The notes beneath the pieces were generated by a model. It had not been told where the DNA came from. It saw only the letters and a program-made list of their open reading frames with translations, and ran no database searches. From contig OZ223521.1 in NCBI GenBank assembly GCA_965140785.1, positions 32,001 through 96,000 on the forward strand: a stretch of 64,000 nucleotides of DNA. The letters run 5' to 3'. Shown here piece by piece: positions 17,355 to 55,683 of this stretch. Source of the stretch: an uncultured Ruficoccus sp. GTDB lineage: Bacteria > Verrucomicrobiota > Verrucomicrobiia > Opitutales > Cerasicoccaceae. Numbering within the stretch: the stretch's first letter is position 1; each line of letters begins with the position of its first letter. Both the position numbers and the translations under genes were made by a program.

Positions 17355-18311
17355 CTATAGGTTAGCGAAAAAGACCGTCTTATCTGCCTGTAAGCGGACG
17401 GTGTCATGAGCGATGTCCGGATGCTCGAAATGACCGTACTGGAGAGCGAATAGCTTCTTTTCACTGCGAATGGCATTATAGACGGCGAACTGGCCAGGAG
17501 GGGCGACGGCGGGGTCGAACTTGGCACAGGCGCAGAGCATAGGCACCCGGATAAAGCAAGCCGCAGTTGCTGCATCATAGTACGGCAGGACCTCGCTTGC
17601 GGTCCTGGGATACTGGCTGACGTAGGCGCTGACCGCCTTTCCGCTCCCGTTGGTGGGCAGCTTCAGGCGGAGCGGCTGGTTGCCAAAGCTGGGGACTTCC
17701 AGGAAGCCGCGCTTGATGCGTTCGTCCCACGGGATCGCCAGGGCGCCGAGCCCGCCGCAGAAGCTTCCGCCGAGGTAGCCGACGTGTCCGGAGACTTGTG
17801 GAAAAAGATCCAGCAGGGCGGACACCGCCAGCCAGATATCCTCCACGCAACCGCCGTGGATGTAGCTGTCGCGGCTCTCAATCCCATGGAGGACGTGCTC
17901 GATGTCGCGCTCGGGGATGCCGGGCAGGCGGCTTCGGCCGATACCGCGTAAGCAGGGCAAAAGGTAGGCCGCGTAGGGATCGGGCAGGGGGACCTCGGGG
18001 GCGTCGCGCCCGCCGTATCCATGGCCCATGACAAAGCCTCGCGTTACGGTTCCGCCGACGGGCCGCAGGAGCCAGCCGCCAATGGTGACGCCTTCCGTGC
18101 TGGTGTATTGAAGATCGAATACGCGCCAGTGCTCCTCCAGGGTTTCTCCGGTGTCGGTGATGCGGGGCCGGGGGGACACGGCGAGCGCCCGCGCATAGCG
18201 GGCTTGCCAGAAGGACGCGAAATCCTCCGGGGGCGGCGGTGCGCCGACCTGGAGCAGGGCGTCGAGGTCGTAGCCGTAAGTGGGGTCGAAAGCGAAGGGG
18301 GGAGCGGTCAT
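17355..18311 (-). CDS. Acetyl xylan esterase (CE7-like)
   Basis: PEDFASFW, GHGYGG, GGSFCGG elbow, FDPAVAPPGQFAVYN, GHF. Confidence 0.85.
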   Translation of the reverse strand: MTAPPFAFDPTYGYDLDALLQVGAPPPPEDFASFWQARYARALAVSPRPRITDTGETLEEHWRVFDLQYTSTEGVTIGGWLLRPVGGTVTRGFVMGHGYGGRDAPEVPLPDPYAAYLLPCLRGIGRSRLPGIPERDIEHVLHGIESRDSYIHGGCVEDIWLAVSALLDLFPQVSGHVGYLGGSFCGGLGALAIPWDERIKRGFLEVPSFGNQPLRLKLPTNGSGKAVSAYVSQYPRTASEVLPYYDAATAACFIRVPMLCACAKFDPAVAPPGQFAVYNAIRSEKKLFALQYGHFEHPDIAHDTVRLQADKTVFFANL

Positions 18312-18354
18312 GGGAATAGGGCTCGGGACGTGCGGCGGGAGTGCGTCGTCGGAT

Positions 18355-20604
18355 TTAGTCGACGACGACGGTGAAACGTGCCTTGAGAAGATCCTCGTCC
18401 CGGCTGCTGCCGCCGAGCTGAAGCTCGAACTCGCCGGGCTCGACGATGCGCTCGCAGGCGGCGTTGACGAGGGTGAGCGCGCTGACGGGCAGCCGGAAGC
18501 GGACGGTCTCGCGCTGGCCGGGCTCGAGATCGACCTGGCGATAAGCCTTCAGCTCCTTGTTGACCCACGTCGCCGAGGTCACCAGATCGGCTACGTATGC
18601 CTGCACGGTTTCGCGCCCGGCGCGCTCTCCGGTGTTCGTCACGGTGACGGTGAACTCCACCTCGCTGTCGGGCTTGAGTGGCTGGTCGGTGTTGAGGATC
18701 GTGAGGTCGCTGTAGGCGAAGGTGGTGTAGCTCAGGCCGAAGCCGAAGGCGAAATGCGGGGACTGGGTGAGGTCCGCGTAGCGGTTGCCGTGCTGGCCTT
18801 TGACCTGGCTGTAATAGATGGGCTGCTGGCCGACGTGATAGGGGATAGAAATGGTCAGGCGGCCCGAGGGGTTGAAATGGCCGAAGACCGCCTCGGCCAC
18901 GGCTTGCCCGCCCATCATGCCGGGGCTGAAGGTCTCGATGATGGCGCCGGCTTGGTGGACGCACCTGGGCAGGACGAGGGGCTTGGTATTGACGATCACG
19001 AGGAGCATCGGGGTACCGGTGGCCGCCAGGGCCTCCAGCAGCGCGAGCTGACCGCCCTGAAGCTCGAGCGTCGCCGTGGAGCAGCATTCGCCGGTCAGGG
19101 GAATGTTGTCCCCGACCACGACGACCGCCACGTCCGCCGATTGGGCCTCGCGCACGGCCTCTGCGATCATGGCGGGGTCGGGTTCGGCGATGACGTTGAC
19201 TTTTCGCCGGGTCTGGCCGTCGTCGTAGCTTTCGTCGATCTCGTCCTTGAGAAGGGTGATGTCCGCGCCCCTGGCGTAGGTGACCTCGCAGTCCGCCGGG
19301 GCCAGTTGCCGGATGCCGTCGAGCACTGTGCAGGTGCAATCTCGCGGGTGTCCGTCCATGATCCACTCGACCTGGCCGCTGGCTCCGGCCCAGTCGCCGA
19401 GCTGGGCCTGGGCGTCGTCCGCGTTGGGGCCGATGACGGCGATCTTTCGCAAGCCCTCGGAGCAGAGGGGTAGCAGGCCGTCATTGCGGAGCAGGACGAG
19501 CGCGCGCCGCGCTATCTCCGCGTTGACCTGACGGTGTTCCTCACAGCCGATGACGATGGCCTGCTTTTCCAGATCGGGGCGACCGGGGTCCTCGAAGAGC
19601 CCGAGCTTAAACTTGAGCGCGAGCAGCCGCTCGACAATGGCGTCGATCTGGGCCTCCTTGACAAGGCCTTCGCGGCAGGCGTCGAGCGCCCCTTCGTAGA
19701 AGCCCGGCGTGGACATAATGAGGTCGTTGCCGCTCTGGATGGCGATGACGGAGGCGTCTTTCATGGTGGGGGCGATCTGCTGCTCCCAGTGCATGCGCCC
19801 GACGTTGTCCCAGTCGGTTACGAGAATGCCCTCGAAGCCCCATTGCTCCTTCAGTACCTCATGCAGGAGCCAGCGGTTGGCGGTGCAGGGGACGCCTTCG
19901 ATCGACTGGTAGCCGGTCATGAAGGAGAGGCAGCCCTCCCGGGCGGCCCGTTCAAAGGGCGGCAGAAAGTACGAAAGCAGCTTGCGGCGGCTCAGGTCGG
20001 CCTCGGAGGCGTCGCGCCCACCCTGAGTCTCGGAGTAGCCGGCGTAGTGCTTGGCGCAGGCGAGAATGGCCTCGGGATCGTCGAGCCCCTTACCCTGATA
20101 GCCGCGGATCATGGCGCAGGCGAACTCGCCGATGAGAAAGGGATCCTCCCCGAAGGTCTCGCCCACGCGGCCCCAGCGCAGGTCGCGGGTTAGGCACAGC
20201 ACGGGGGAGAAGGTCCACTTGAGCCCGGTGAGTCGGACTTCGCGGGCGGTCACGCGGGCAGCCTCTTCGATCAGGTCGGCATTCCAGCTCGCAGCCATGG
20301 CCAACTGGGTGGGAAAGATCGTCGCGCCGGGATGGAAGGAGTGCCCGTGGATGCAGTCGTCCCCGAAGAGCAGGGGGATGGCCAGCCGCGTGCGTGCAGC
20401 CAGGTCCATGGCGACGGCGGCCCGCTCGTTCTGGATGTGCAGGAGCGAGCCGACATGCTTGTCGAAGATGAGTTCGTTCAGGTCGCAGCGCTGGCCTTCG
20501 AGCTGCATCATTTGCCCGACTTTCTCCTCCAGGCTCATGCGCCCGAGCAGGTCGGCGACGCGGGCGTCGATGGATTGGGAGGGGTCTTGATAGATATGGG
20601 TCAT
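18355..20604 (-). CDS. GH3 beta-glucosidase/xylosidase
   Basis: MSLEEKVGQ, RWGRVGETFGEDP, KHYAGY, nucleophile TDW, FGFGLSYTTF, FnIII C-terminus. Confidence 0.93.
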   Translation of the reverse strand: MTHIYQDPSQSIDARVADLLGRMSLEEKVGQMMQLEGQRCDLNELIFDKHVGSLLHIQNERAAVAMDLAARTRLAIPLLFGDDCIHGHSFHPGATIFPTQLAMAASWNADLIEEAARVTAREVRLTGLKWTFSPVLCLTRDLRWGRVGETFGEDPFLIGEFACAMIRGYQGKGLDDPEAILACAKHYAGYSETQGGRDASEADLSRRKLLSYFLPPFERAAREGCLSFMTGYQSIEGVPCTANRWLLHEVLKEQWGFEGILVTDWDNVGRMHWEQQIAPTMKDASVIAIQSGNDLIMSTPGFYEGALDACREGLVKEAQIDAIVERLLALKFKLGLFEDPGRPDLEKQAIVIGCEEHRQVNAEIARRALVLLRNDGLLPLCSEGLRKIAVIGPNADDAQAQLGDWAGASGQVEWIMDGHPRDCTCTVLDGIRQLAPADCEVTYARGADITLLKDEIDESYDDGQTRRKVNVIAEPDPAMIAEAVREAQSADVAVVVVGDNIPLTGECCSTATLELQGGQLALLEALAATGTPMLLVIVNTKPLVLPRCVHQAGAIIETFSPGMMGGQAVAEAVFGHFNPSGRLTISIPYHVGQQPIYYSQVKGQHGNRYADLTQSPHFAFGFGLSYTTFAYSDLTILNTDQPLKPDSEVEFTVTVTNTGERAGRETVQAYVADLVTSATWVNKELKAYRQVDLEPGQRETVRFRLPVSALTLVNAACERIVEPGEFELQLGGSSRDEDLLKARFTVVVD

Positions 20605-20668
20605 GGGAGGTAAAAAGGGTTTATCCTAACGGTACCCCAATGCACGGGGACAGCGAGTTGTGTTGCGC

Positions 20669-20801: not shown

Positions 20802-21641
20802 ATGAGCTTATCCCGCTTCTTTTCCAGACCACTTTCATGGGTCGCCCTGCTGGGGCTTGGCATCTGCCTGACGGGCAGCCTGCACGCCGCCGAAGAGGCG
20901 CAGCCGGCAGTCAAACAGGGCAATGCACCCTTTGTCATCCTGAAGCTGGATGACCTGACGTGGCGCAGTCCGGCCTGGAAGCAGACGGTGGCCTTTCTGG
21001 AGGAGAAGAACATCAAGTTCAGCATCGGGATCATCTGCGAGAAGGCGCTGGAGGGGGACCGCAAGCCCTTTTACGCATGGGTGAAGGAGCACAATGCCAC
21101 CGGCCTGGTCGAGTTCTGGAACCACGGCTACACGCACAAGGAGTGGAAGGACGAAAACGGCAACAAGGTGCGGGAGTTCGCCGGAGCCCCCTACGAGGAG
21201 CAGAAGCAGCACTTCGAGCGCTCGCAGGAGCTGGCCAAAGAAAAGCTCGGTATCACCTTTCGCACGTTCGGTGCGCCTTTCAACAAGACCGACGAAAACA
21301 CCGTACGTGTGCTCAATGAGAACCCCGACGTGAAGGTGTTCCTCTACGGCACAGCAGATCAGGCCAAGGAGCTTTCTGAGGTGGAGGTGATCGAACGCAC
21401 ACCGATGAATATCGAGTACCCGCTTTTTATCCCCAATCCCGACCAACTGAAAAAAGACTACGCAAAACTTTCCCCCACGACCGAGTGCTTTGTCATCCAG
21501 GGCCACCCGAACAACTGGGACAAGGATGACCGTTTCGAGCGCTTCAAGGAACTGGTCAACTACCTCATCGAGCAGGGCGTCACTTTTACCACCCCGTATG
21601 AATACTACCTCTATTGCCAGCAAAAGACACCCGCGTCCTGA
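20802..21641 (+). CDS. Exported polysaccharide deacetylase (NodB/DUF2334-like)
   Basis: Signal peptide, LKLDDL, WNHGYTH, FGAPFN, QGHP. Confidence 0.75.
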   Translation: MSLSRFFSRPLSWVALLGLGICLTGSLHAAEEAQPAVKQGNAPFVILKLDDLTWRSPAWKQTVAFLEEKNIKFSIGIICEKALEGDRKPFYAWVKEHNATGLVEFWNHGYTHKEWKDENGNKVREFAGAPYEEQKQHFERSQELAKEKLGITFRTFGAPFNKTDENTVRVLNENPDVKVFLYGTADQAKELSEVEVIERTPMNIEYPLFIPNPDQLKKDYAKLSPTTECFVIQGHPNNWDKDDRFERFKELVNYLIEQGVTFTTPYEYYLYCQQKTPAS

Positions 21642-21692: not shown

Positions 21693-21808
21693 CTTTCACC
21701 CGCCTTGCGCTAGTCCCGCGCTGATGGGAGAATGGCTTTCACGATAAGCCCGACTTGCGTTCATCGCAGTGTAAACCCCCGAAACCCCCGAAACAACTGC
21801 TCACGCTT

Positions 21809-23172
21809 ATGAAAACACAAATCGCCCCGACCTTGCTTAAGCGCCCTGTCGGTATCGCCGCAGCCAGCTGCATGCTGCTTGCCGCTTCCTCCAGCTTCGC
21901 CGCCGACCTGACCTGGCTTTATGACACCGGCAGTTACGACTGGGATCTCACCTCGGAGTATTGGAACGACGGCGTCAGCGACACCGCCTGGACCAATGGC
22001 GATGCCGCCATCTTTAATGGTTTTTCCGACTCCTCCACGCTCACCTTGCAGAATAATGTCACTGCGACGAGCATCACCCGTAATGATACCAATGGCACTA
22101 AGTCACTGACCATCGACGGGGGGGCTACCAGCTCGACGTCACAACGATCTCGGCCCTCGGCTCCGTCGGAGATATCAAGGTCGATGCCGACATTACCGGC
22201 GACCACGATTTGACCTTGATTGGGCCGAATACCTCCTACGGGCAAACCGACACCCGTATTCAGTTGGTCACCGCGTCAAGCTACACGGGTACCACCTACC
22301 TCAAGAATTACGCATATGTTCTAGCTGACGATTTCAGCAACAATGCTCTCCCGACCTCGACGGTCCTGGACATCGATGGGGGCTCCACCTTCTTCATGAA
22401 ATACCACACCCAGACAGTCCAGGGATTGACGGGCGATGGTAGCATGCGGGGTACCAGTCAGAGCCCGACCAGCAATTTGGCGAAATTGGTCATCGATACC
22501 CAGGCGGGGGTCACGACTGAGTTTACCGGGACCACGGGCTCCACTAACGACAGCCTTCATCTGGAGATCACGGGGTCCGGCACGCAGCGCTTTTCCAAGG
22601 GTTATGTGAGTGGCGGGAGCATCACCGTATCCGGCGGCACGCTGGACCTGGGCGGCGACGTGACCGCTGCGCCCAGCGTGACGATCAGCGGCGGTAATCT
22701 GCTCAGCGACGCCGGTGAGACGATCGCCCTCGGTGTCGGCACCGTGAGCATGACCTCCGGTTCGATCACGCCGGGGGGCGTGGGCAGCGCCGGGACGATG
22801 GCGGTGGCCGCCGACCAGAACTTCACCGTGAGCGGCGGCGCGCTGAACATGGATGTCGGCACCTCCTCGGACCAGATTCTCGGTGCCGGCAGCGGCACCT
22901 TCAGCCTTGAAAACATGACCATCGCGCTGACGACCGGAGACGGTTTCGACTACAACAGCACGTACACCCTGCTCAGCGGTTTCGCCAGCGGTAGCTACGA
23001 CAATGTCACCATCACCGGCTACGACACTGCCAACTGGCTGGCCCAGCTCGACGTCTCTTCGGGCGGTTTGAACTTGTCCTTCGTCTCCGTGCCCGAGCCC
23101 TCGACCTACGCGCTGATCTTCGGCGGACTGGTCGGCCTGGTCGCCCTGCAGCGCCGCCGGCGCCGGGGCTGA
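21809..23172 (+). pseudogene. PEP-CTERM surface protein with passenger-like beta repeats, frameshifted in G7 at 22118-22124
   Basis: Signal peptide from MKTQ; C-terminal VPEPSTYALIFGGLVGLVALQRRRRRG. One extra G joins the two ORFs (DGGGYQLDVTT...). Confidence 0.85.
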
Positions 23173-23294: not shown

Positions 23295-23978
23295 ATGAAA
23301 AAACAGATCTGTCATTTGCTTGTCGCCACCTTGTGCCTGGCCGGTCCGCTTGCGGCCCAGAACCTGGTCAAGAACGGCACTTTCGAAAAAGGCACGTCCA
23401 ACTGGAGCCTCTTCGCTCCGGGAGATGCCAAGGCCAACAACGCCAAGCTGGCCGTGAGCGCCGAAGGGGCGCACGGGGGCGCGAACGCCGCCGAGCTGAC
23501 CTCCACGGGGCCCGTGCGTTATGGCATGGTCACCTATATCAGCGGCCATCGGTTCGCACCCGGTCAGAAGTATCGCCTGCGTGCGTGGGTACGCGCAGGG
23601 GCGGACTTCCAGCCCGTGGCGGATACGCCGGGATTTCTCATCCGCGTGACGATGTACGCGTCGGCGAGCGGCTGGGACACGGCGACCGACGGGATGCTCT
23701 ATCTCGGAGCCGCCGATAAGGTCGTCCGTGGCAAGGACACCAGCGCTTTCAACAACCAGGTCGTTCCGACCGAATGGACCCAGCTGGAAACGGAGTTCGT
23801 GGCCTCGCCGGAGACGGCCAAAATGAACATTTCGGTCTTCGTCTGGAAGGGAAGCGGCGCTTTTTACGTGGACGATGTTTCGCTCGAGCTGCTGCCTGCC
23901 GAGGCACAGCCGACAGCGGTCGCTCCTCCGGCGACGACATCTGCCCCGGTGGAAGCGACCGTTCCAGAGGCGAAATAG
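23295..23978 (+). CDS. Exported carbohydrate-binding (CBM4/9-like) protein
   Basis: Signal peptide, NLVKNGTFE, YRLRAWVR, FYVDDVSL. Confidence 0.8.
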   Translation: MKKQICHLLVATLCLAGPLAAQNLVKNGTFEKGTSNWSLFAPGDAKANNAKLAVSAEGAHGGANAAELTSTGPVRYGMVTYISGHRFAPGQKYRLRAWVRAGADFQPVADTPGFLIRVTMYASASGWDTATDGMLYLGAADKVVRGKDTSAFNNQVVPTEWTQLETEFVASPETAKMNISVFVWKGSGAFYVDDVSLELLPAEAQPTAVAPPATTSAPVEATVPEAK

Positions 23979-24238: not shown

Positions 24239-25282
24239 CTAAGCCTGCTGGGCGCGCAGCGTCGTGCCTTGCCGCCAGGTGCCCTCGACGAGAATGCGGA
24301 CGGGGGTGGCCGGGATCCCGTGCTCTCCGCGCTGGAGCATGCCCACCAGAAAGTCCACCGCAGTCTGGCCGATGAGGCGCCCGTTCTGGTCAACCCCGGC
24401 GCGCGTCTTGTCATCGGCCCCGAGCGAAAGCCAGGCGCAGCCGACATCCTCTGGCACGCGTACACCGAGGTCGCCCAGCCACTCGTCGATCTCATGGTCG
24501 ATGTCGCTGATCACGACATCCGGGCGGTTTTTCAGATACCACGCCTGGAAAAGCTCGCGGTCGTCCACCCCTTCGCTGCCCATGTAGGCGGTCACGTGCT
24601 TGCGGTCCGGATGACGCTGGCAGTAGCGCCAGTAGCCGGTCGTGTAGGCGTTGTCGGTTTTGTTGTCCACGTAATCGTGCAGGTACAGCCCGATGCGCTG
24701 GTAGCCCAGCTCCGTGATCTTGTCGAGCGCCAGGCTCACGCTGTGAAACTGGTGGTTGGTCACCAGATGGAAGACGTGCGGCACGATGCTGTAGCCGAAC
24801 GAGATGGTCGAAAAGAGTTTGTACTCCAGGGGCAAGCGGTTGGCCTGGGTGGGGAGGGGAGGCAGGAGAAGGCCGGTGATGCCGCGGCTGTTCAAAACCC
24901 GGGAGAGGCGTTGCGGGCTCATGTCGCTTTCACACAGGCGGAACTCCTCCAGTTCGTAGCCCAGTTGTCGGGCGCGTTCGCCGGCACCAAGGTAGTACTC
25001 ATTAAAGGTGGGCTGGTCACGCAGGCGAAGTTTGGCTTCGTTGGTCCAAGTGTCGATCCAGGCGAGGGTGGACTGGTAATGGACCGTGAGTTTGGTTTTG
25101 CGGTAGGCGTTGAGCGCAGCCAGGGCCGGATCGGGAGTGTAACCAAGCTTGCGGGCGATCGCTTTGATCTTATCCCGTACAGGAGCGGAAACCCTCGGGT
25201 GGTCGCGCAGGGCCAGGCTGACCGTGCTGTAGTGGACATCTGCCTCGGCGGCGATGTCTCTCAGAGTGACCCGGGCTTTCAC
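24239..25282 (-). CDS. LacI-family regulator 1
   Basis: VTLRDIAAEADVHYSTVSLALR HTH, GYTPDPAL, VRVPEDVG. Confidence 0.92.
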   Translation of the reverse strand: MKARVTLRDIAAEADVHYSTVSLALRDHPRVSAPVRDKIKAIARKLGYTPDPALAALNAYRKTKLTVHYQSTLAWIDTWTNEAKLRLRDQPTFNEYYLGAGERARQLGYELEEFRLCESDMSPQRLSRVLNSRGITGLLLPPLPTQANRLPLEYKLFSTISFGYSIVPHVFHLVTNHQFHSVSLALDKITELGYQRIGLYLHDYVDNKTDNAYTTGYWRYCQRHPDRKHVTAYMGSEGVDDRELFQAWYLKNRPDVVISDIDHEIDEWLGDLGVRVPEDVGCAWLSLGADDKTRAGVDQNGRLIGQTAVDFLVGMLQRGEHGIPATPVRILVEGTWRQGTTLRAQQA

Positions 25283-25394: not shown

Positions 25395-26441
25395 ATGTCC
25401 ACCGAGAGCCCCCGGATTTCTCATGAACGCCCCTGCGCCGACCCTACTACTCCGGGCAAGGTGTTGCTTGCACTCAGTGCCGACGAAATGGCTTTGTTTT
25501 TCCCGGAGGGCTTTGATGGTGGCGGGGCCACGGTCGAGTGGAAGGAACCGGCGCTGAAGACTCAGGTGCTTTATGACATGCTCCAGCATGCGCAACCGGA
25601 TGTCGTCGTGACGGCCTGGACCACGCCTGCCTTTGAGGTGGAGTGGCTGGATGAATTTCCAGCTCTGCGCTACATTTGCCATGCCAGCGGATCGGTGCGT
25701 AATCTGGTCCCGCGCGTTTTCCTGGAGCGGGGCGTCCTGGTCAGCAACTGGGGGACACTGGCCGCCAGTAATGTGGCCGAGCATGCGTTGCTCCTGACCC
25801 TCGCCGGCTTGCGACGGATGAGCGAATGGTCGAGTGTCATCAGCGGCCAGCGACCGTGGCAGCCGTCGCCGATTGTCACCCGGACGCTTTTCCGCAAACG
25901 GGTGGGTGTGCATGGGATGGGCAATGTCGCCCAGTGCCTGGTTCGGCTGCTGGCGTGCTTCGAGGTCAGTGTCTCGGCCTACTCGGAAGGTGTCCCGCAG
26001 GAGCTGTATGACCGCTGTGGTGTGAAGCGCTGCGAGCGGCTCGAAGACCTTTTTGCCGACAACGACATCGTGATCGAGTGCGAGGCCCTGAGTGCGCATA
26101 CGCAGGGGATCGTCACGCGCGAGATCCTCAACCGGCTCCCGTACGGGGCGCTCTTTGTCAATGTCGGACGCGGTGCCGTGGTGGACGAGGCCGCGCTGGC
26201 CGAGCTGGCGAGAGCGGGCCGTTGCCATGTGGCGCTGGATGTTTACGAGACCGACCCGATCGATCCGCAGTCCCCGCTACATGAGGTGGAGGATGGAGTG
26301 CTCTCCCCGCATATCGCCGGACCGACCTCGGACCAGTTCGCCTGTTGTGGCCAACTGGCCATGCGCAACGTGCGCGCTTTTCTGGCCGGGGAACCGGTTG
26401 AGGCCGTGGTCGATTTGCCGATCTATGACCGTTCGACCTAG
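25395..26441 (+). CDS. D-isomer-specific 2-hydroxyacid dehydrogenase
   Basis: VAEHAL, VGVHGMGNVA, FVNVGRGAVVDE, ALDVYETDP, SPHIAG. Confidence 0.9.
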   Translation: MSTESPRISHERPCADPTTPGKVLLALSADEMALFFPEGFDGGGATVEWKEPALKTQVLYDMLQHAQPDVVVTAWTTPAFEVEWLDEFPALRYICHASGSVRNLVPRVFLERGVLVSNWGTLAASNVAEHALLLTLAGLRRMSEWSSVISGQRPWQPSPIVTRTLFRKRVGVHGMGNVAQCLVRLLACFEVSVSAYSEGVPQELYDRCGVKRCERLEDLFADNDIVIECEALSAHTQGIVTREILNRLPYGALFVNVGRGAVVDEAALAELARAGRCHVALDVYETDPIDPQSPLHEVEDGVLSPHIAGPTSDQFACCGQLAMRNVRAFLAGEPVEAVVDLPIYDRST

Positions 26442-26642
26442 TGGATGGCGATTTCCCGCATCCGTCACTCTCTCGCCCCGTATTGCTTGGATAACCCCGC
26501 GTGACCATGACCTTTTCCGCCCCTGACCCTATCTGGCTTTCTTCGGTGAGTTCCGCGTTGACCGACCGCCGCGCGCTCGATGATTTTAAAAGCGTCGCAC
26601 CGTCGGAGGCATGCCCTTGTCTCCTGCGTAAGGAGGACACTG

Positions 26643-34015: not shown

Positions 34016-34022
34016 GGGAAAT

Positions 34023-41318: not shown

Positions 41319-41327
41319 GGAGGCACC

Positions 41328-41762: not shown

Positions 41763-41787
41763 CCCCGTCAACCCCCCCGCGCCAGCC

Positions 41788-47369: not shown

Positions 47370-47551
47370 AATAAAGCGGATGGGGTATTATCTCGGCGGG
47401 GGGCTATCGCCAGGTCGGTGAGAAATGCCGACATCCGGGGCTGTCGCCATTCTCTTCGCTGATTGGCAGGGGGACACCCTCCAGCCGAGCGGCATGGAAG
47501 GCTACTGTCAGCCGAAAATGTACAGGTGTCTTCATCTTGTCATTGAGTGGG

Positions 47552-48535
47552 TTACCAGCCTTTTTGGCAGGCCATGACCAGCTCACGCATAGAGCCGGTC
47601 GCCAAGCATATTTTATCATCGGTGGCGCCATAGTAGAGGCTTAATCGGTCTTCGTCCCAGTCACCGATCGCTCCGCAGGGGAAGACCACATTATCGCAGT
47701 TGCCATTGCGTTCATAGGGTTCCTTCGGGGCCAAGATCCAACTGTTCGTTTTTCCGATGATCTTCCATGGCTCCTCCAGGTCCAGCAGCAAGGCGCCGAT
47801 GTAATAATAGGTGCCCCCGGCAGGCGTGAAGACGCCGTGTATGATTTCGAGCCAGCCTTCGGGGGTCCAGATCGGCGGCGTCGGGCCGACTTTCTGGGTA
47901 TTCCAATAGCGGTATCCGGCAGCCAGCAACGGCTGAAAGTTCCCCCAGTGGATCAGGTCCGGCGACGAGCTGATCCAGATATCGCCCGTGCTGCCATCCC
48001 CGCCGCCAGGGCGGTCGAGTTTCCAGTACTTCCCGTTGATCTTCGCCGGGAACAGGGAAGCCCCCCGGTTCATCGGCTGCGTGATGATGGCGATGCGCTC
48101 GTAATCAGTGAAATCGCTCGTCCGCCCAAGCATGCCGACCGGTGAGGCGAACCCGCGCACCATCACCGGCGTCACCACATAGTACACGTCATCGATGCGT
48201 GTCACCCGGTTGTCGATGAAATGATGATACAAGTCCCAGGGCCATCCCGTCGCCTGCGGATCGATGAAGTTCTCGGTCCCAAGCTCGAAATGGATGCCAT
48301 CGTGGCTGCGGGCAATGCGGGTCTGCCCCACGTCACGCCCATACCCCCGGGTGGCGGCGTGCTCGACCACGGAAACGAGCAGGATCGTTTCATCGCCGAA
48401 CCGGACTGGCGAGGGGTTGTAGAGTTGAGCCACGCCGGGGTAGTCTTCCAGGCGCAGCACAGGATTGTCGCTGTGGCGTTTGAGGATGCCCGTCGCATCG
48501 CGTTTCGTCGAATAGGATGAATGTTGATTAATCAT
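47552..48535 (-). CDS. GH130 mannoside phosphorylase/mannosidase family
   Basis: NPVL, YNPSPV, DNRVT, LFPAKING, SPDLIHWG, GWLEIIHGV, NVVFPCG, YYGATD. Confidence 0.88.
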   Translation of the reverse strand: MINQHSSYSTKRDATGILKRHSDNPVLRLEDYPGVAQLYNPSPVRFGDETILLVSVVEHAATRGYGRDVGQTRIARSHDGIHFELGTENFIDPQATGWPWDLYHHFIDNRVTRIDDVYYVVTPVMVRGFASPVGMLGRTSDFTDYERIAIITQPMNRGASLFPAKINGKYWKLDRPGGGDGSTGDIWISSSPDLIHWGNFQPLLAAGYRYWNTQKVGPTPPIWTPEGWLEIIHGVFTPAGGTYYYIGALLLDLEEPWKIIGKTNSWILAPKEPYERNGNCDNVVFPCGAIGDWDEDRLSLYYGATDDKICLATGSMRELVMACQKGW

Positions 48536-48572
48536 AGCGAGTGTCGGAGGGAAAGAAGGTAGCGTCGAAGGA

Positions 48573-50531
48573 TCAGGGAGTCTGTACCGGATATCCCCAG
48601 TCCCCCAGTGGAATGACCGGCCATGAGGTCACTTCGCCTTGCGGCCACACCGGGGAGAATAGGACGGCGATGCGAACCGGGCCCGCCGGTTGATCCGGCA
48701 GGCGGAGCATGACGCGCCGCCAGCCATTGTTGGGCAACTGGGGCGGCAGTTGCTCGGCAGACTCCACGCTGAAAGTGGCCCCGCTCGGAGACAGTACGTG
48801 CAGATTCAGTTGCTTGCCATTCTTGGTCAGGGTAGCCGCTGCTCCGTTCGGGGTGACCGCGGCGCTGGTTGTGAATCCCCAGGCGATATCCGCCGTGCCC
48901 GCCAGCTCGATTTCGTCCTGAACGAGCGCGGCCTGCCGGCTCGCGACCAGCGCGGCTCCCCGGCGAAGAGACGTCACCGGCTGCCCATAGGCGTTCGACA
49001 AGTCGATTTCGACGAAGGGCATCGTGTTTTGCCCGGAATCTGCGCCCGATTGGAAACGTGTGACGGAAGCCCTCCCCGTGGTCTCCTGGTTTTGCGCGTT
49101 GAAGGTGGGGACGTTGTGGCTGAACGAATTGGTCCGATAGTATTCCCAGCGCTGGCCGGAACGGCTGTCGAAGTACCCCGGCAGGTTGTAGCGATCGGAC
49201 CCCAGATCGCTGACCCACCGGACTCCAAGCGCGTCGAGTTCGAAGTTGCCCAGGTCGAGGTGGCCGTGATTCACTTCGTTGTAGCCGGCCTTGATTCCGA
49301 CAAAGAGGGCCGCAGGGTCCTCCCAGGCGCTTCTCATGAACACCAACTCAACAGGCCCGCGGTAATATTTGTCGAGCGCAGGCGTCTCCGACCCTGGCTG
49401 ATTTGACGAGGCATACCAGATGACATCCTCCGGGGCGACCCATTGGCTCGTCTCAATCAAGTGATGCTGAAAGTTGACGGCAAATGCACTGTTATAAGTC
49501 CGGCCCAGCCAGAATAAGGCCGCCGCGGGCTCCAGTACTTTCCCCGCCCAGCAGTCCGCATAAGCCATCGGAAGGTTCGTCGGCCCGGTACTGTAAACGG
49601 GGAACATGGCGGTTTCGGCGAGGCCCTCGGTGTCCTCCAGTCCTTCATCGGTGCCCTTGGCGCTCTCCAGGGCGGCCAAGGCATAGCAGACGTAACTGGT
49701 GGCATACTTCCAGTACCCCGGTCCCTCTCCCCATGCGCCATCCGGTCCGTATTGGCTGAGCGCCCGGGGCATAGACGCGATAGCGCGCGGCACGATCACT
49801 GCCTCATACTGAGGCGCATCGTCGCTGACCGCGAGCGCTCCGAGGATCATCCCGGTGTTGCATACCAGGTTCCAATTATGATTCGCCCCGACCCACCAGC
49901 CGTAGGTCGAATTTCCCGAATAGGCCTCAACTCCGGGCTCCAAGCCCTTCGTGATAAGCGCCTCGCGTATCACCTCGGCCTCATCCAGATCCAAATCAAA
50001 GTAGGTCCAGTCATAGCCGATCGCGACCGCGTGCGTCATCTCCGCCGTGTCGAGAAAGTGGGAAGGGTTCCAATCGGGGAAGTTGCAGACGGCAAGGAGA
50101 TTGTCGCGCAGGGCCTCGTAATAATCGCGCCGTCCGCTCCAGCGATAGGCTAGGCCGAGCGTATAGACCCGTTTCAGGCATTCTCGGCTGACCTCCAGTA
50201 TACTGTCGCGGTCCCCGCTGTCATAGTAGAGCGCGGGGGCTGACAGCAGCGCGTCGGCCTGGCGCAGGCAGTCTTCCACGTACTGTTCCAGGAGGGGATC
50301 GGACTGGGCCTGCGCCCAGAGTTCGTCGAGACGCTCATCCGTCAGGATGAGCCACGGGTGAAAAGCCGCCGCTGCGGACTGGCTCGCTTCTGTCCCGGCG
50401 GTTGGCACCGGTGCCGTGTCCGTGGCGGACGTGCCGTCGGGGGCAGCCTGAAGCGCCGGAATGGATAGGGGTGTCAGCAGGATCAGCCCGAGGGAAAGAA
50501 GGCTGAGTGGTTGGATAGGAGTAGTTTTCAT
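48573..50531 (-). CDS. Heparinase II/III-like exported oligosaccharide lyase
   Basis: Start reassigned to MKTTPIQ. WNPSHFLDTAE, HNWNLVC, DGAWGEGPGYW.Y, NHGHLDLGNF. Confidence 0.85.
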   Translation of the reverse strand: MKTTPIQPLSLLSLGLILLTPLSIPALQAAPDGTSATDTAPVPTAGTEASQSAAAAFHPWLILTDERLDELWAQAQSDPLLEQYVEDCLRQADALLSAPALYYDSGDRDSILEVSRECLKRVYTLGLAYRWSGRRDYYEALRDNLLAVCNFPDWNPSHFLDTAEMTHAVAIGYDWTYFDLDLDEAEVIREALITKGLEPGVEAYSGNSTYGWWVGANHNWNLVCNTGMILGALAVSDDAPQYEAVIVPRAIASMPRALSQYGPDGAWGEGPGYWKYATSYVCYALAALESAKGTDEGLEDTEGLAETAMFPVYSTGPTNLPMAYADCWAGKVLEPAAALFWLGRTYNSAFAVNFQHHLIETSQWVAPEDVIWYASSNQPGSETPALDKYYRGPVELVFMRSAWEDPAALFVGIKAGYNEVNHGHLDLGNFELDALGVRWVSDLGSDRYNLPGYFDSRSGQRWEYYRTNSFSHNVPTFNAQNQETTGRASVTRFQSGADSGQNTMPFVEIDLSNAYGQPVTSLRRGAALVASRQAALVQDEIELAGTADIAWGFTTSAAVTPNGAAATLTKNGKQLNLHVLSPSGATFSVESAEQLPPQLPNNGWRRVMLRLPDQPAGPVRIAVLFSPVWPQGEVTSWPVIPLGDWGYPVQTP

Positions 50532-50542
50532 GTGAGGTAAAT

Positions 50543-51328
50543 TCAGCGTTTGCCCACGGCGATATGGTGGGCAGTGAGATAGTCGTAGCTGTCTTGGATC
50601 GCCCCCCAGATGTTGCCGTCGTAGTCGTCCAGTTCCACCCCGACATATTCGGCCGCCACGGCCGCTTCGGCGGCGGCAAGCAGATCCACCTCTCCGGCTC
50701 CCGCCGCCTGGTAGGGGATCATCACGGAGGGTGCGTCGACCAGGCCGTCCTTGAAGTGGAGCACCCGCCCGCGCGATCCGATGTCCCGCACGAACTCGAC
50801 GGGGTCCAGTCCCGCTTTGGCGACCCAGAACAGGTCTGCTTCCCACAGGACGTTCTCAGGCGTCAATTCCAGGAAATATTGATAAGACGGTCGCCCATCA
50901 ATCATGCCCAGATCTTTCGCATGGTTGTGGTAACCGACCATCAGGCCGTGGGCGTGCGCGTTAGCCGCCGCCTGACAGTAAAGCTCTGCCGCCGCCTTGA
51001 GGCCGTCCATCTGGCTGAAGTTGGGGATGCCGTAGGGGGGCACCGCTGTGATCAGATATTTATGGCCCAGTTCAAGCGCAGTTTCAATCACTTCGTTCGT
51101 GCGTTCTCCGACGGGGAGCGGGCAGTGGGCAGTGGGCGCGAGCAGTCCGTAGCGGTTCAATATTTCCGCTGTCCGCGTCGGGGTCGATCCCGGAAACCCA
51201 GCCGGCTCCACACAGGGAAACCCGATCTGAGACAGTGTCCGGATCGTCCCTTCGAAGTCCATGCGCAGCTGTGTGCGTAGCGTGTACAGCTGGATCGTTA
51301 ATACCGGTATTTGGCGCTCAGTCAGCAT
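50543..51328 (-). CDS. Sugar phosphate isomerase/epimerase (TIM barrel)
   Basis: IQLYTLR, GYHNH, EADLFW, LHFKD, VELD. Confidence 0.85.
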   Translation of the reverse strand: MLTERQIPVLTIQLYTLRTQLRMDFEGTIRTLSQIGFPCVEPAGFPGSTPTRTAEILNRYGLLAPTAHCPLPVGERTNEVIETALELGHKYLITAVPPYGIPNFSQMDGLKAAAELYCQAAANAHAHGLMVGYHNHAKDLGMIDGRPSYQYFLELTPENVLWEADLFWVAKAGLDPVEFVRDIGSRGRVLHFKDGLVDAPSVMIPYQAAGAGEVDLLAAAEAAVAAEYVGVELDDYDGNIWGAIQDSYDYLTAHHIAVGKR

Positions 51329-51366
51329 ATATCAAAATGACATCTGGCATTAAAGTTATCGGGGGC

Positions 51367-53227
51367 CTATACGTCTCGATGAGGCTTATCCGAGTAGTTA
51401 AGGCATAACGGGGGAAGGGTGGGGGAGCCGACAGCCGATGTCTCCGGTTGCGCGCCAGCGGTATCAGGAGAACTGGATTCCAGAATCGCCCTAACGCGTG
51501 TCCGCGCCCGACGCCCGCCAAGGTGTAATAGCACGCCCACGCACCCGATGAATGTTGCGACCCCCAGCACACAAAGCCGGCCGGTCACGTCGTTGGGCAC
51601 AAGCAGTATCAGCAGAACGAATGCCCCCACGCAGAGAACGGCCTTGGAGAGCACGAAATACTGCTCGTAGTCGATCGTTGAGGAACCCACCTCTTTCTCG
51701 TAATCCACAGGCGTACTCATCATCTTGAAAAAACGGGCCACCTCCTCGCGCTCGGCCGACGAGCTGAAAACATGCAGGAGTCGGCAAACGGCCGTTGTTG
51801 CCAGGCCAAAGACCATGATCCAGAGGGTGCGCTTCTGTATCGTCCAGTCCGTGCCGTTCACCCGCGTATCGATGAACGACCAGATCGAGGGAATCATGCA
51901 GGCTGCGAAAATCGGGAAGTAGGACCACTTCGGCAGCTTTTTCAGCCACAGTCCCATGAGCATCGGAAACCCCATGGGTACACCGATGACCGACCCGATG
52001 ATGAGGTAGGTATCAAACAGGGCGACCGTGCCCTGCCGCGCAATCAAGACAGCATACGTGATGATGACACCGCCCAGGATAACCGTGGCCACATGACAGA
52101 TGCGGATTTCGGTCCTGGGGGAAAGGTCATCGTGGTAACCCAAGGCCCCCCGCATGCGCGGGATGATGTTCCGCACAATGTTTCCGACGACACCGTTCAG
52201 CCCGGAATCCATACTGCTCATAGTGGCGGCGAACATCGCAGCGATCAGCATGCCCAGCATTCCGTTGGGCAAAAGCCGCATCGCGATATAGGCGTACGCG
52301 CTCTCGGCGGGCTTGTTTATGGCGCTGGACATGATCTCACCTTCAAAAAGGAAGCGAGCCACCATGGGTGGAACGAACCAGACGGCGCTGCCCAGCGCCA
52401 TCAGTAAAAAGGCCCACCACGACGCCCGCGAGGCTTCCCGCCCATCGCGCGTGGAAATATAGCGCCCGGTTGAACTCAGGCTGACCTGCCCGTACAACTG
52501 CATAAAAAACACAATCGCCGCCCACTGGTACGTGAACCGATCCCCCTGGAAATCTGCCTGCGTCGTTAAAAAAACGAAAATCCTGGGCAAAGTGCGGATC
52601 ACTGAAATAATTGAAAAATGGTCCCAGCCCGCCGATGGCCCGTAACGACAGCACAAAGACCAGTAGCGTGATGGAAAACATGACCAGCGCCTGGACAAAA
52701 TCCGCGGCCATGACCGCCCACTTACCTCCCGTCGTCGAATAGAAAATAACGATCACGCCGATCGTCACCAACACCGGCAACAACGGCAAGCCCAGCACCG
52801 TGCTGGCAAAGAGCGAAAGCGCGTAGAGCTGGATCGCGGCGCCGACCGGCCCGAGGAAAACCTCGGTGAAAGCGGCGAATTGCTCGACGGGTACCCCGTA
52901 ACGCACCCGGACTACGTCCGCGGTTGTATAGGCCCGGGTCTGCCTCAGCCACCGCCCCAGAAAGAGCCCGCCAACCACGTACCCCAGGCAATTGGCGATG
53001 TAGATTACCAAGAGGCTAGGGCCAGCCTCAAAGGCGGCGGAAGCGTTCCCAGTGAAGGTGAAGGCACTGATACCGCTCATCAGCATACTGGTTCCGACCA
53101 TCCACCAAGTTCCTTGCGCCCCGCCCCGAACAAAATCACTCAGGTTTTTGTTGAACCGTGAAAATACCACCCCGAGCATCAACAGGATGCCCAGATAGAT
53201 CGCCAGCGTTATATACTCAATTTTCAT
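51367..53227 (-). pseudogene. Sodium:solute symporter, frameshifted in a G5 run at about 52545
   Basis: SAFTFTG, TTGGKWAVMAADFVQ in the first ORF; LPNGMLG..AMFAATMSSMDSGLN in the second. Confidence 0.85.
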
Positions 53228-53444
53228 CGATACGATCAGATTGAGGAGGGACGGATAGCACGCCCGTTGATTGCATCGGGGAAAAACCGATAAGGACAGC
53301 CCGAGTGGCTGTTTGCGCCCGAGCCGCTAGAGACTCATCCGCCTGGAATGAGCGATTGCGGATGGTTGATTTGGGGTTGGTTGTATTCATCGGAGCACGG
53401 GCGCACTCTTTTTTATCTTGTCACTTTCATCAACACCCCCATGG

Positions 53445-53459
53445 CTAACACATGAGAGT
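53445..53459 (+). promoter_or_regulatory. Operator motif 2 (CTAACACATGAGAGT) abutting the LacI-2 start
   Basis: 14/15 identical to the reverse complement of 54612-54626. Confidence 0.55.
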
Positions 53460-54479
53460 ATGGACGGAAAAAGAGTCACTCAATCCGATGTAGCCAAGAT
53501 AGCGGGCGTCCATCGTACGACTGTTTCTCTTGCCTTCAAGCGCCACCCCAGCATTCCCGCCGAAACGCGGGAGCGCGTTCTGCGTATCGCGGAGGAACTG
53601 GGTTACAGCCCGGATCCGATGCTGACGGCGCTAGCTTCGTATCGCAACCGTCTGCAGGTCCGCCCCTACCAGGGCACTCTTGCCTGGCTGTTGATCGACA
53701 GCCATACACTTCCCAAAGATTGGCGCCAACTGGTTAACTACATCTATTATCAAGGTGCCGTCAAACAGGCGAAAAAGTATGGCTATAATGTGGAGGTATT
53801 CGAATATTGCACCGAAAAGATGACGGCCAAACGCATGGCAGCGATCTTACGAGCTCGTAACGTCAATGGCATTCTCTTATCGCCCCAACCGCAGCCATAT
53901 ACCGTTCGGGATTTTATCTGGGATGACTTCTCTTTTATCTCTTTTGGCTACACGCTACACTCCCCCAAACTGCATATCGTAACGGCTGCCCAATACCGTT
54001 CGACGGTTCGGCTCATGGACCGCATGTACCAACTGGGCTACCGGCGCATCGCCTTCGCGTTCGACCCTACGCACGACGCGCGTGTTGATCATAATTTTAT
54101 AGCCGGTTATCTGGCTTTTCAACACACCGCCGGCGCACCAAAACTGATTTACCCCTATCGCTGGAAGTTATCAGAACTGGACGGCTTTCGGGAATTTTTG
54201 AAAACCAAGCGACCAGATGCCATCATCACCGGGGATGAGAATTTCGCCAAGTATATCCGCATGCTGGGCTTGCGTGTTCCAGAAGATATTGGAGTCGCCA
54301 GTCCCGTGGTCGATGCTCCTGATACTCACATGACGGGCTTTAACGAAAACTCCCTGCAAATTGGAGCCGTCGCCGTTGACCGCTTGACCGATATGATTAT
54401 GCGCGGGGAAAAGGGCATTCCGCCTGAAACCCAATGCACGCTCGTTGACGGTGTATGGGTTGAAGGCGATACGCTCTAA
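53460..54479 (+). CDS. LacI-family regulator 2
   Basis: VTQSDVAKIAGVHRTTVSLAF, GYSPDPML, LRVPEDIG. Start reassigned to MDGKR. Confidence 0.92.
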   Translation: MDGKRVTQSDVAKIAGVHRTTVSLAFKRHPSIPAETRERVLRIAEELGYSPDPMLTALASYRNRLQVRPYQGTLAWLLIDSHTLPKDWRQLVNYIYYQGAVKQAKKYGYNVEVFEYCTEKMTAKRMAAILRARNVNGILLSPQPQPYTVRDFIWDDFSFISFGYTLHSPKLHIVTAAQYRSTVRLMDRMYQLGYRRIAFAFDPTHDARVDHNFIAGYLAFQHTAGAPKLIYPYRWKLSELDGFREFLKTKRPDAIITGDENFAKYIRMLGLRVPEDIGVASPVVDAPDTHMTGFNENSLQIGAVAVDRLTDMIMRGEKGIPPETQCTLVDGVWVEGDTL

Positions 54480-54611: not shown

Positions 54612-54626
54612 ACTCTCATGTGTGAG
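54612..54626 (-). promoter_or_regulatory. Operator motif 2 copy upstream of the second PEP-CTERM-like gene
   Basis: ACTCTCATGTGTGAG, whose reverse complement is CTCACACATGAGAGT. Confidence 0.5.
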
Positions 54627-54834
54627 TCCGGAGGCGCTTTCTTTTTTTTAGAGATTGTTTTTATATACATCCGTCAACGTTTCATGCCCCCGATTCTATC
54701 CTCCGATGGCCCTTAATCTCATAGCGAATGTAGTCCCGCAATCTCGAGATATGAAGAGTCGAGATACAGCAATCCGGGAACCTGTATGAGCACGTCCGTT
54801 TACTCCATATTAGTCACCCTAAATCAAAAAATCC

Positions 54835-55683
54835 ATGAACAACACTATCACTAAAATCTCGTTTCTAGCTTTCTTGGGAATGACCGCATCCATGAGCCAT
54901 GCGGCTATTCTGTTTTCAGAAGACTTCAACGAATACACCGCCGGGGAGCCCATTCCGACGGGGACCGATCAGACTTGGACCATTCGCACCGAGAATACAA
55001 CTTTTGAAGCAATTGATGACACGAGCCATATTTTTTCCCCCTCCGGCAATCAATATGGCCAACTGGACTTTGATGCCGCCTCAGGCGCCGCAGATCCGTT
55101 GGCGTCCACCAACTCGTCGGCCTTCAGCGAAGGTAGCATGACCGGGAAGCTCAGCATTTCATTCTGCACCCCCGAGGCACAGAGTACCTCCGGCTATGGG
55201 TTCCTCCTGCGCATCGGCAACGCCGCCGGTAATTCTGGGACCGCCTTTGCGATGTACATTTTGAAAAACGGCCAATTGCGCCCGAGTACCACCGATGGAG
55301 GCATGGGGTATTCCTTTGCTACCTATTCGCTCGGTGTCGCCAATCAGCTCGAGATTGTCTTCAACAACTCAAATGACTCTGTCAGTTATGAAGGAGGTAC
55401 TGTCGCCTCAAGGACCATGGATGTTTATCTTAACGGATCACTGGTCGCGGACGACATAACGAGCGGAACTGGCGGTCTCGCCCTGGAATCCAATATCACG
55501 AACATCAACTTCAGCGCCAAAACCTATGCGGAGGCATTCACTGGCACTATGTATCTGAACAAAGTCGAGCTTAGCACGATTCCCGAATCCAGCGCCAGTT
55601 CCAATGCGATTGCCATCGCCTTGATCGCCGCACTGAGCCTGTTTATTCGTCACCGTTACCATTCCCGTCGGTCGTCGTTATAG
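54835..55683 (+). CDS. PEP-CTERM-like surface protein (IPES variant)
   Basis: Signal peptide (SHA-A); C-terminal IPES, hydrophobic helix and basic tail. Confidence 0.7.
   Translation: MNNTITKISFLAFLGMTASMSHAAILFSEDFNEYTAGEPIPTGTDQTWTIRTENTTFEAIDDTSHIFSPSGNQYGQLDFDAASGAADPLASTNSSAFSEGSMTGKLSISFCTPEAQSTSGYGFLLRIGNAAGNSGTAFAMYILKNGQLRPSTTDGGMGYSFATYSLGVANQLEIVFNNSNDSVSYEGGTVASRTMDVYLNGSLVADDITSGTGGLALESNITNINFSAKTYAEAFTGTMYLNKVELSTIPESSASSNAIAIALIAALSLFIRHRYHSRRSSL

Follow-up and report, generated by a model that had tools for sequence, protein, structure and literature searches.

Which envelope proteins could take hold of a polysaccharide in sugar loci that carry neither a TonB-dependent receptor nor SusD? 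This question is raised by a 64,000-nt stretch of DNA (the window) from an uncultured Ruficoccus sp. of the Verrucomicrobiota (GCA_965140785.1, contig OZ223521.1, positions 32,001 to 96,000; C50:32001-96000 in our contig numbering). Two sugar modules in the window each carry a gene for a giant pilin-like protein (giant1, giant2), followed by a gene for a small secreted protein (partner1, partner2), and an operon of TPR, ExbB, ExbD and TonB-like genes lies between them. The source genome measures 4.36 Mb in 50 contigs and is 90.85% complete, and the nearest named relatives of its proteins are Cerasicoccus, Puniceicoccus, Rariglobus and Opitutaceae, which puts it in the Opitutales group. An earlier note on this DNA had proposed that each sugar locus supplies its own filament-tip protein and partner for glycan capture, functionally replacing SusD, with the central operon powering uptake. 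Overall, we found this interpretation partly supported. In our own reading, to which we give an even chance, the giants and partners are sugar-regulated, exchangeable heads on a pseudopilus or pilus, which would recognize the glycan of their locus for capture and possibly uptake, and the ExbB-ExbD operon is separate from them.

Verrucomicrobiota play a major part in breaking down mucin and recalcitrant sulfated and algal polysaccharides. Passages of one study of metagenome-assembled genomes (MAGs) report no SusCD genes and single out transport across the outer membrane as an unanswered question (PMC8857213). Passages of another study describe labelled fucoidan accumulating inside marine Akkermansiaceae cells and cite a different family for periplasmic laminarin storage (PMC13174399).

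Predicted fold of the giants and predicted docking of their partners

The two pairs of genes are arranged in the window as follows.

28402-29142, minus strand: partner1, a secreted protein of 246 aa (ATG 25 nt inside the end of giant1; module 1)
29118-32690, minus strand: giant1, 1190 aa, minor-pseudopilin-like with a predicted GspK fold (longest open reading frame (ORF) to 32753, likely start MKNFSHR at 32690)
43189-43902, minus strand: partner2, a secreted protein of 237 aa with two predicted immunoglobulin (Ig)-like beta-sandwich domains (ATG overlapping the giant2 stop by 25 nt; module 2)
43878-47369, minus strand: giant2, 1163 aa, minor-pseudopilin-like with a predicted GspK fold and an insertion of ~800 residues (predicted structure; module 2)

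giant1 and giant2 are paralogs with 59-61% identity. Both carry a prepilin-type leader with a G|F junction (ARQG|FALIMSLVLM in giant1, RGG|FALVIAIVLM in giant2) and without Glu at +5. Across 64 aligned homologs, G27, F28, A29 and L30 were at least 90% conserved, again with no Glu at +5. Gly at -1, a hydrophobic N-terminal helix and the absence of Glu5, the leader features of GspK, were thus present in both giants as sequence motifs, and a motif scan of the window found no prepilin-type N-terminus besides theirs.

An AlphaFold2 model of giant2, built from the homolog alignment, reached a per-residue confidence (pLDDT) of 90.6 and a predicted template modelling score (pTM) of 0.89, with an N-terminal helix of 59 residues at 28-86. 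When this model was compared with 48,161 PDB representative chains, the top match was XcpX (5vtm_X; Z 11.4, 227 of 259 residues aligned, root-mean-square deviation 3.4), followed by GspK (3ci0_K; Z 11.1, 247 of 280 residues aligned) and, in third place, ComZ (Z 7.3, 110 residues aligned), while ordinary pilins stayed at Z 5.3 or below. The XcpX and GspK alignments cover 88% of the target residues and span model residues ~56-1163; therefore the GspK core would be built from both ends of the protein, with ~800 residues inserted. The beta-rich middle (~407-742) gave just weak beta-sandwich matches (Z 3-4), and residues 561-680 are the least conserved stretch among 15 paralogs. A profile search of PDB sequences with the giant returned a chance match alone (E 0.21). 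By predicted fold, the giants are cap-type minor pseudopilins of the GspK/XcpX kind. The assignment to PilX/GspK-type proteins lacking Glu5, made in the earlier note, is thereby upheld, the leader being read from the sequence and the fold from predicted structure only.

The partners are of a different kind. In both modules the partner ATG lies 25 nt within the 3' end of the giant gene, and both products have a signal peptide and no pilin helix. The model of partner2 (pLDDT 90.5) consists of two tandem Ig-like beta-sandwiches; the nearest structure is that of the PepT2 extracellular domain, with 180 residues aligned at Z 13.4. For the second domain there is also a likeness to AlgF, a periplasmic alginate-acetylation protein, in its C-terminal domain (Z 8.7); a similarity of fold says nothing of function. 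Some partner-family proteins of 448-652 aa (P0138, P0175 and P0198) contain two or three matched stretches and are tandemly duplicated forms.

The association of giant and partner, which had been proposed for multimer modelling, was examined by docking giant2 residues 380-1163 with partner2 residues 27-237, the N-terminal 379 residues of the giant being omitted for size. The interface score ipSAE was 0.76, 0.81 and 0.82 in three runs, and the best of three controls gave 0.00. The mark used for this score is attained by 116 of 157 solved complexes and by 2 of 215 mismatched pairs, and it is rough here, as custom alignments were used. The runs had at least 72% of contacts in common, with a partner pLDDT of at least 81. 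The predicted interface on giant2 comprises residues 552-556, 634-666 and 718-744 and sits in the most variable stretch of the giant (561-680 among the 15 paralogs). Because no solved relative is present in the PDB, the score is not the recall of a known complex. The partner is thus predicted to dock on the variable head of the giant.

Copy number and sugar-locus setting

The source genome holds 17 giant copies, 15 of them full-length, one truncated at a contig end and one in fragments. Searches with phmmer placed a partner directly downstream of 11 of them; behind a further 4 comes a secreted ORF of partner size. These 15 in-genome partners share only ~20% identity with one another. We also collected 58 giant loci outside this genome, from Cerasicoccus, Rariglobus, Thalassobacterium, Opitutaceae and other MAGs; 4 of these loci are cut downstream. 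A partner lay directly downstream in 54 of the 54 loci that retain the giant 3' end and downstream DNA, and the cultured strains Cerasicoccus arenae KCTC 12870, C. maritimus NBRC 105382 and C. frondis NBRC 105381 are among the carriers of such pairs. Giant and partner are a multi-copy two-gene unit.

A word-based homolog search with partner2 found 2 proteins only, so an exhaustive profile search was needed. Against 1.84 billion representatives, the partner profile matched 4209 protein clusters at E<=0.001, of which 2859 reached E<=1e-10. The giant profile matched 42 of 151 sampled Verrucomicrobiota genomes, with four candidates scored per genome, so that these are presence counts and not copy numbers. 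The matches are concentrated in few families (14/15, 15/15, 6/8 and 3/3 genomes), other families giving 0/24 and 0/14. This very large giant-partner family, to which no source that we found assigns a function, is a candidate for the missing outer-membrane transport step. UniRef labels several close giant homologs as Verru_Chthon cassette protein A.

The seventeenth copy (L045:8475-11504 = C47:125274-128303) is broken up over at least four ORFs, is not followed by a partner and lies among housekeeping genes, with M16 and M24 peptidases and tRNA synthetases as neighbours. It is either a decaying copy or a poorly assembled stretch.

For the genomic setting, 20-kb intervals around the 17 giants and 16 random 20-kb intervals were Pfam-scanned alike. 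Most giant intervals contain LacI or AraC regulators, MFS_2, sodium:solute symporter (SSS) or ABC transporters, and a varied set of GH, PL, esterase and sulfatase genes. In several of them the regulator gene is an immediate neighbour of the giant operon or is divergent to it. LacI was found in 14 of 17 giant intervals and in 5 of 16 random ones (Fisher p=0.004). Within 10 kb of a giant, a space that makes up 8.3% of the genome, lie 15 of its 60 LacI genes (expected 5.0, p=8e-5) and 6 of its 13 MFS_2 genes (p=3e-4). Of the 58 giant loci collected elsewhere, 36 lie within 10 kb of a LacI or AraC gene, a bare count with no background rate beside it. LacI-type regulators and MFS_2 importers, unlike carbohydrate-active enzymes (CAZymes), distinguish the giant loci in this genome. 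With 17 copies, 14 of them having LacI within 10 kb, the claim that sugar loci come with a giant and partner of their own is borne out.

The two modules of the window illustrate this setting. Genes were identified by Pfam and NCBIfam scans with hidden Markov models (HMMs) of 33 candidate ORFs plus follow-up scans, which recovered in full the gene list given earlier for both modules and the centre. Besides the giants and partners, the modules contain the following features.

17355-18311, minus strand: CE7/AXE1 esterase (Pfam/NCBIfam; module 1)
18355-20604, minus strand: GH3 (Pfam/NCBIfam; module 1)
20802-21641, plus strand: polysaccharide deacetylase/DUF2334 with signal peptide (Pfam/NCBIfam; module 1)
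21755-23172, plus strand: PEP-CTERM surface protein, appearing as two ORFs, 21755-22213 and 22210-23172 (HMM scans; module 1)
23295-23978, plus strand: secreted CBM_4_9 carbohydrate-binding protein with signal peptide (HMM scan; module 1)
24239-25282, minus strand: LacI-family regulator 1 (HMM scan; module 1)
25395-26441, plus strand: D-2-hydroxyacid dehydrogenase (HMM scan)
26580-28058, plus strand: MFS sugar transporter (HMM scan; module 1)
32835-34015, minus strand: GH37 trehalase-like gene with a broken frame near 33784, 144 nt upstream of giant1 (HMM scan; module 1)
34023-35458, minus strand: secreted polysaccharide lyase (PF14099) with C-terminal extension, indels at 34747 and 35255 (HMM scan; module 1)
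47552-48535, minus strand: GH130 phosphorylase-type enzyme without signal peptide, 182 nt upstream of giant2 (HMM scan; module 2)
48573-50531, minus strand: heparinase II/III-like protein with signal peptide, true start MKTTPIQ (HMM scan; module 2)
50543-51328, minus strand: xylose-isomerase-like TIM-barrel protein (weak match, E 0.0023, below cut-off; module 2)
51367-53227, minus strand: SSS, two ORFs through an indel at 52542 (HMM scan; module 2)
53418-54479, plus strand: LacI-family regulator 2 (HMM scan; module 2)
54835-55683, plus strand: secreted protein ending in a hydrophobic stretch and a basic tail, judged PEP-CTERM-like by eye (no HMM match; module 2)

None of the 33 scanned ORFs matched a TonB-dependent receptor, SusD, secretin or pilus ATPase. 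This agrees with their reported absence from the region, and the genome's copies are all on other contigs. To the left of module 1 (11857-15746, minus strand) lie an 834-aa sulfatase and a FadL/TodX-type outer-membrane channel; a channel of this type near sugar loci is a possible outer-membrane route for small molecules. To the right of module 2 (56115-58988, minus strand) is a glycyl-radical enzyme (PFL-like and Gly_radical domains) with a radical-SAM activase.

As assembled, the lyase gene is in three ORFs and the trehalase-like and SSS genes are in two each. When contigs from two public runs (X1 and X2) were compared with the window, single-base indels appeared at 33784, 34747, 35255 and 52542. 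These are the frame breaks of the trehalase-like gene, the lyase (two) and the SSS gene, and they account for all four breaks in the stretch compared, 33300-53299; two of the four sites fall in C5 homopolymers. X1 contains 0.99 of the sampled window words and X2 0.59; X1 may be the source sample and hence non-independent, and X2 backs three of the four sites, carrying one extra G at 33784 in the trehalase-like gene. Because single-base indels sit at the exact frame breaks, the three genes are taken to be intact in reality, and the frameshifts are most likely assembly errors. Pseudogenization was rejected, the run-derived contigs being one base different at every break. Other split genes in the genome (M16 peptidase, acetyl-CoA hydrolase, GH20 and LacI) may share this cause. 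A joint in one X1 contig, from 33489 to 52422 with just 21 letters on one side, was taken as noise. None of the public runs listed as containing this DNA is recorded as RNA.

The same contigs gave a side observation on partner2. At window positions 43432-43767 the X2 contig has 28 differences in ~340 nt, which change 23 codons (15 non-synonymous, 8 synonymous), all within residues 46-157, and over the adjoining 981 nt of giant2 there is 1 difference. Smaller clusters of differences lie at 46849-46892, within the indel-rich variable part of giant2. The partner2 differences may reflect strain-level diversification or recombination, or a mis-placed contig from a relative.

Candidate machinery and the operon between the modules

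If the giants cap a filament, the filament would have to come from elsewhere in the genome. The earlier note had placed a pilus or type II secretion system (T2SS) machine outside the region, and we indeed located 5 secretins, 7 GspE/PilB/PilT-type ATPases, 1 prepilin peptidase and a complete gspG-H-I-J-K-L-M-D-E-F operon with an ordinary 374-aa GspK elsewhere in the genome, the secretins and pilus ATPases all lying off the window contig. In addition, a cluster on C18 (L047:7158-10754, minus strand) contains five tandem genes for Glu5 pseudopilins beside rho, with no cap or assembly genes adjoining. Their best family matches, all sub-threshold, are Verru_Chthon D, B and C, and this cluster is a candidate for a stalk shared by the dispersed giants. 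Only 2 TonB-dependent receptors (C46 and C9) and 1 SusD (C9) were found in the 4.36 Mb. The sole SusD adjoins one of these receptors at C9:17130-20563 (plus strand), forming a lone SusC/D-like pair.

The presence of a full T2SS bears on a rival that we grade as serious, although we consider it unlikely: the giants may be alternative T2SS caps that specify export of the CAZymes of their own locus, and not glycan capture or import. Their nearest folds, GspK and XcpX, are T2SS caps, and signal peptides occur on the lyase, deacetylase, CBM protein and heparinase-like protein of the two modules. Passages of a study on Planctomycetota describe a T2SS up-regulated in external fucoidan degradation (PMC11685898), and passages of an Opitutales study propose alginase export through a T2SS and list one pseudopilin among 17 alginate-over-expressed genes (PMC13274419). 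However, the T2SS operon has a GspK of its own, and the GH130 and trehalase-like genes directly upstream of the giants have no signal peptide in the ORFs as read. Moreover, a small secreted partner predicted to sit on a variable head suits a ligand-binding head at least equally. If caps do steer secretion, this would be a new way to confer substrate specificity on the T2SS.

A second rival dispenses with the filament. Here the N-terminal helix would be an anchor, and giant and partner would form a periplasmic glycan binder or scaffold, tethered to the inner membrane and feeding the MFS, SSS or ABC importer, or else a sensor. It fits the lack of accompanying GspH/I/J genes, the position of the giants beside inner-membrane sugar transporters with MFS_2 enriched (6/13), and the likeness of the partner to the AlgF C-terminal domain (Z 8.7). 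Bacteria of the Planctomycetota-Verrucomicrobiota-Chlamydiota (PVC) group are, furthermore, rich in prepilin-type genes of unassigned use, passages of the Opitutales study giving 67 homologs of a pulG-like pseudopilin gene in one genome (PMC13274419). For a plain anchor, however, the conserved G|F cleavage motif and a GspK core aligned over 88% would be superfluous. The structural analogue ComZ is, besides, a pilus-tip protein, and we regard this alternative as quite improbable.

We therefore return to exchangeable heads on a filament. Capture or import is our preferred direction, because TonB-dependent receptors are scarce and because of the likeness to ComZ. Fold, pairing, copy number, regulator association and docking were computed; beyond them, we infer filament assembly, glycan binding and the direction of transport. 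Each locus would be induced by its glycan. The giant, a cap minor pseudopilin of the GspK/XcpX type with a leader cut after Gly, would be processed by the single prepilin peptidase; its core would form from the N- and C-terminal parts, and the ~800 inserted residues would make a large head that is most variable in its middle. The small downstream gene would be translationally coupled, and its Sec-secreted product of two Ig domains would dock on the variable head. The resulting cap-partner head would then be mounted on a pseudopilus or pilus built by machinery elsewhere, for which the T2SS operon, the other secretin and ATPase sets and the five-pseudopilin cluster are candidates. At or beyond the outer membrane, the head would recognize the glycan of its locus, leading to capture and possibly to secretin-mediated uptake.

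Several results weigh against this reading. The GspK assignment rests on predicted structure, because sequence models match the N-terminal helix only: the GspK family model NF037980 gives giant1 19.7 bits against a cut-off of 130, over the N-terminal 71 residues only, and has no match to giant2, and TIGR02600 gives 23.3 and 25.9 bits against a cut-off of 332.3, over model positions 1-59 only. An hhalign comparison of the giant profile with the genome's own GspK aligned 21 columns at a probability of 0.6%, and Foldseek found no match of the giant model to the PDB at E<=0.001. In the structure comparison the head showed no recognizable carbohydrate-binding module (beta-sandwich matches, Z 3-4). 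The motif scan of the window found no gspH-, gspI- or gspJ-like genes beside the giants; among the 58 loci of other genomes, 2 (L111 and L118) have a prepilin-type ORF directly upstream of the giant. The canonical T2SS is in need of no further cap, because it has its own GspK in the operon.

The sugar-locus association also has its exceptions. Three of the 17 copies depart from it, one being fragmented amid housekeeping genes, one lying at a contig end and one having a LacI fragment only. AraC (8/52), SSS (3/22) and sulfatase (4/26) genes near giants are not significantly enriched, and the HMM seeds were drawn from giant loci; therefore the enrichment test may favour their subfamilies. CAZyme-type matches, counted by eye from Pfam names (GH, PL, CE/SASA/GDSL, sulfatase and CBM, excluding intervals with Beta_helix alone or BNR_4 alone), occurred in 11 of 17 giant and 8 of 16 random intervals (p=0.31). 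The enrichment beside CAZymes that had been suggested thus does not rise above the background of this genome. CAZyme proximity is uninformative here because the genome is dense in sugar loci.

The remaining part of the region is the operon between the two modules, all of whose genes are on the plus strand.

35862-38912, plus strand: TPR protein, TPR1 (HMM scan; central operon)
38909-40051, plus strand: second TPR protein, its start overlapping the TPR1 stop (HMM scan; central operon)
40103-40870, plus strand: ExbB (MotA_ExbB Pfam, 94.2 bits, cut-off 22.9)
40905-41318, plus strand: first ExbD (ExbD Pfam above cut-off 25.4; pair scores 70.9 and 74.9 bits)
41328-41762, plus strand: second ExbD (same Pfam, cut-off and pair scores)
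41788-42903, plus strand: TonB-like protein with a transmembrane (TM) helix, a poly-Pro spacer and a possibly PA14-like C-terminal domain (no Pfam family; language-model search lead)

The last protein shows the N-terminal features of TonB. It has a TM helix (...ASVTVHVLG...) with S-x3-H, the motif of E. coli TonB, followed by the poly-Pro spacer EEAPPPPPPPPT, and its gene directly follows ExbB-ExbD-ExbD. No TonB C-terminal domain was found in it, nor any Pfam family at E<=10 save a chance match. In a language-model search, residues 150-400 grouped with PA14-bearing Verrucomicrobiota clusters (0.96, 208/256 features). Of the TM/polyPro/PA14-like description given earlier, the TM helix and poly-Pro spacer were therefore seen in the protein, and the PA14-like part agrees with this search, which is a lead only.

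The earlier note had made this operon the dedicated shared motor of both cap modules, powering glycan uptake. In its favour are the position between the modules and the build of the last gene product, with a TonB-type TM helix, a poly-Pro spacer and a C-terminal domain that is PA14-like and may bind sugar. Of the TonB-like/PA14 protein or domain the genome has 3 copies, and 3 of 3 lie within 10 kb of a giant (8.3% of the genome): apart from the one in the window on C50, these are L038:18244-19494 (plus strand) and L032:2008-2808 (plus strand), on C50 at 135 kb and on C17, the third being a C-terminal domain only. This proximity is a lead toward a giant link, unlike the synteny elsewhere. There are also at least five ExbB-ExbD sets for the 2 TonB-dependent receptors; further sets occur on C46 (beside a TonB-dependent receptor), C36, C43 and C32.

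A search for related loci with the TonB-like protein yielded one locus, and a search across genomes was used instead. The operon was found in 3 relatives: L048 and L073 keep its gene order, and L072 has a rearranged one. The fetched flanks contain no giant in any of the three (loci of 13-20 kb; L048 left flank 2.6 kb). Conversely, none of the 58 giant loci of other genomes has ExbB, ExbD, TPR1 or the TonB-like protein within 10 kb, and in the source genome a second, paralogous TPR-ExbB-ExbD-ExbD cluster (C10:18830-21615, minus strand) lies ~440 kb from the nearest giant. Because of these three observations, synteny does not support a shared energizer, and we hold the dedicated motor to be distinctly unlikely. 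We read the operon as a separate, conserved Ton-type system, whose position between the modules is probably incidental.

A bolder version of the capture reading would still join the two systems. A retractile pseudopilus with sugar-induced giant and Ig-partner heads would be the counterpart of SusCD in Opitutales and other Verrucomicrobiota: the head of the induced locus would bind its polysaccharide outside the cell, the fibre would draw the chain into the periplasm through a secretin, much as competence pili take up DNA, and ExbBD-driven, PA14-ended TonB-like proteins would help to pull or hold the chain. We regard this as rather unlikely; if true, it would explain "selfish" polysaccharide uptake in a phylum without SusCD.

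Comparison with known systems

The giants share with GspK and XcpX a prepilin-type leader, G at -1, the lack of Glu5, a long N-terminal helix and a superposing predicted core. They differ in being 3-4 times larger, with ~800 inserted residues and a sequence match confined to the N-terminal helix, and in lying outside a gspH-I-J-K operon, in 17 copies, with a secreted partner that is not a pilin and in most cases with a sugar regulator as neighbour.

Verru_Chthon cassette protein A (TIGR02600) is likewise verrucomicrobial, measures ~1200-1300 aa and has a similar N-terminus. The giants, however, score far below its cut-off and are accompanied by a partner of two Ig domains instead of proteins B, C and D. 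In the source genome TIGR02598 (B) had no match, and TIGR02599 and TIGR02596 gave N-terminal matches only, below cut-off, none adjoining a giant. A literature search, supplements excluded, returned no paper on the Verru_Chthon cassette or on giant GspK-like proteins in Verrucomicrobia sugar loci. By sequence and context the giant unit belongs to neither GspK nor TIGR02600, although it would work in the manner of a GspK cap. The Verru_Chthon cassette is catalogued yet unstudied, and the giant unit is a variant of it with an Ig-type partner in place of B, C and D.

Like the SusC/SusD pairs of Bacteroidota polysaccharide utilization loci, the giant unit gives each glycan locus a regulated pair of envelope proteins of its own. 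It differs in having no homology to that pair, no TonB-dependent barrel and no SusD fold; adjacent SusC and SusD genes are absent from the 33 ORFs of the region, and neither family occurs on the contig of the window.

Pilus-related proteins have a reported part in glycan uptake in another verrucomicrobial genus. Passages on the Akkermansia mucin-utilization loci MUL1 (mul1A = amuc_0544) and MUL2 (amuc_1099-1102) describe pilus-related proteins as required for mucin uptake, and mention pili, a PilM-like protein, periplasmic complexes and a Sus-like MUL1 (PMC13174399, PMC12418764, PMC12570417). As described in these passages, MUL2 differs in having archaeal-type-IV-pilin-like and PilM-like proteins, not a giant GspK-like cap with an Ig partner.

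Finally, ComZ of the Thermus thermophilus competence pilus (PDB 6qvi) resembles the giants in its architecture, a pilin core bearing a very large inserted domain. It differs in the fold of the insertion and in its substrate; its one gene copy belongs to a competence locus and has no Ig-type partner beside it. ComZ is located at the tip of its pilus, where it binds DNA as substrate, and on that basis it would be the working analogue for substrate capture by a giant tip.

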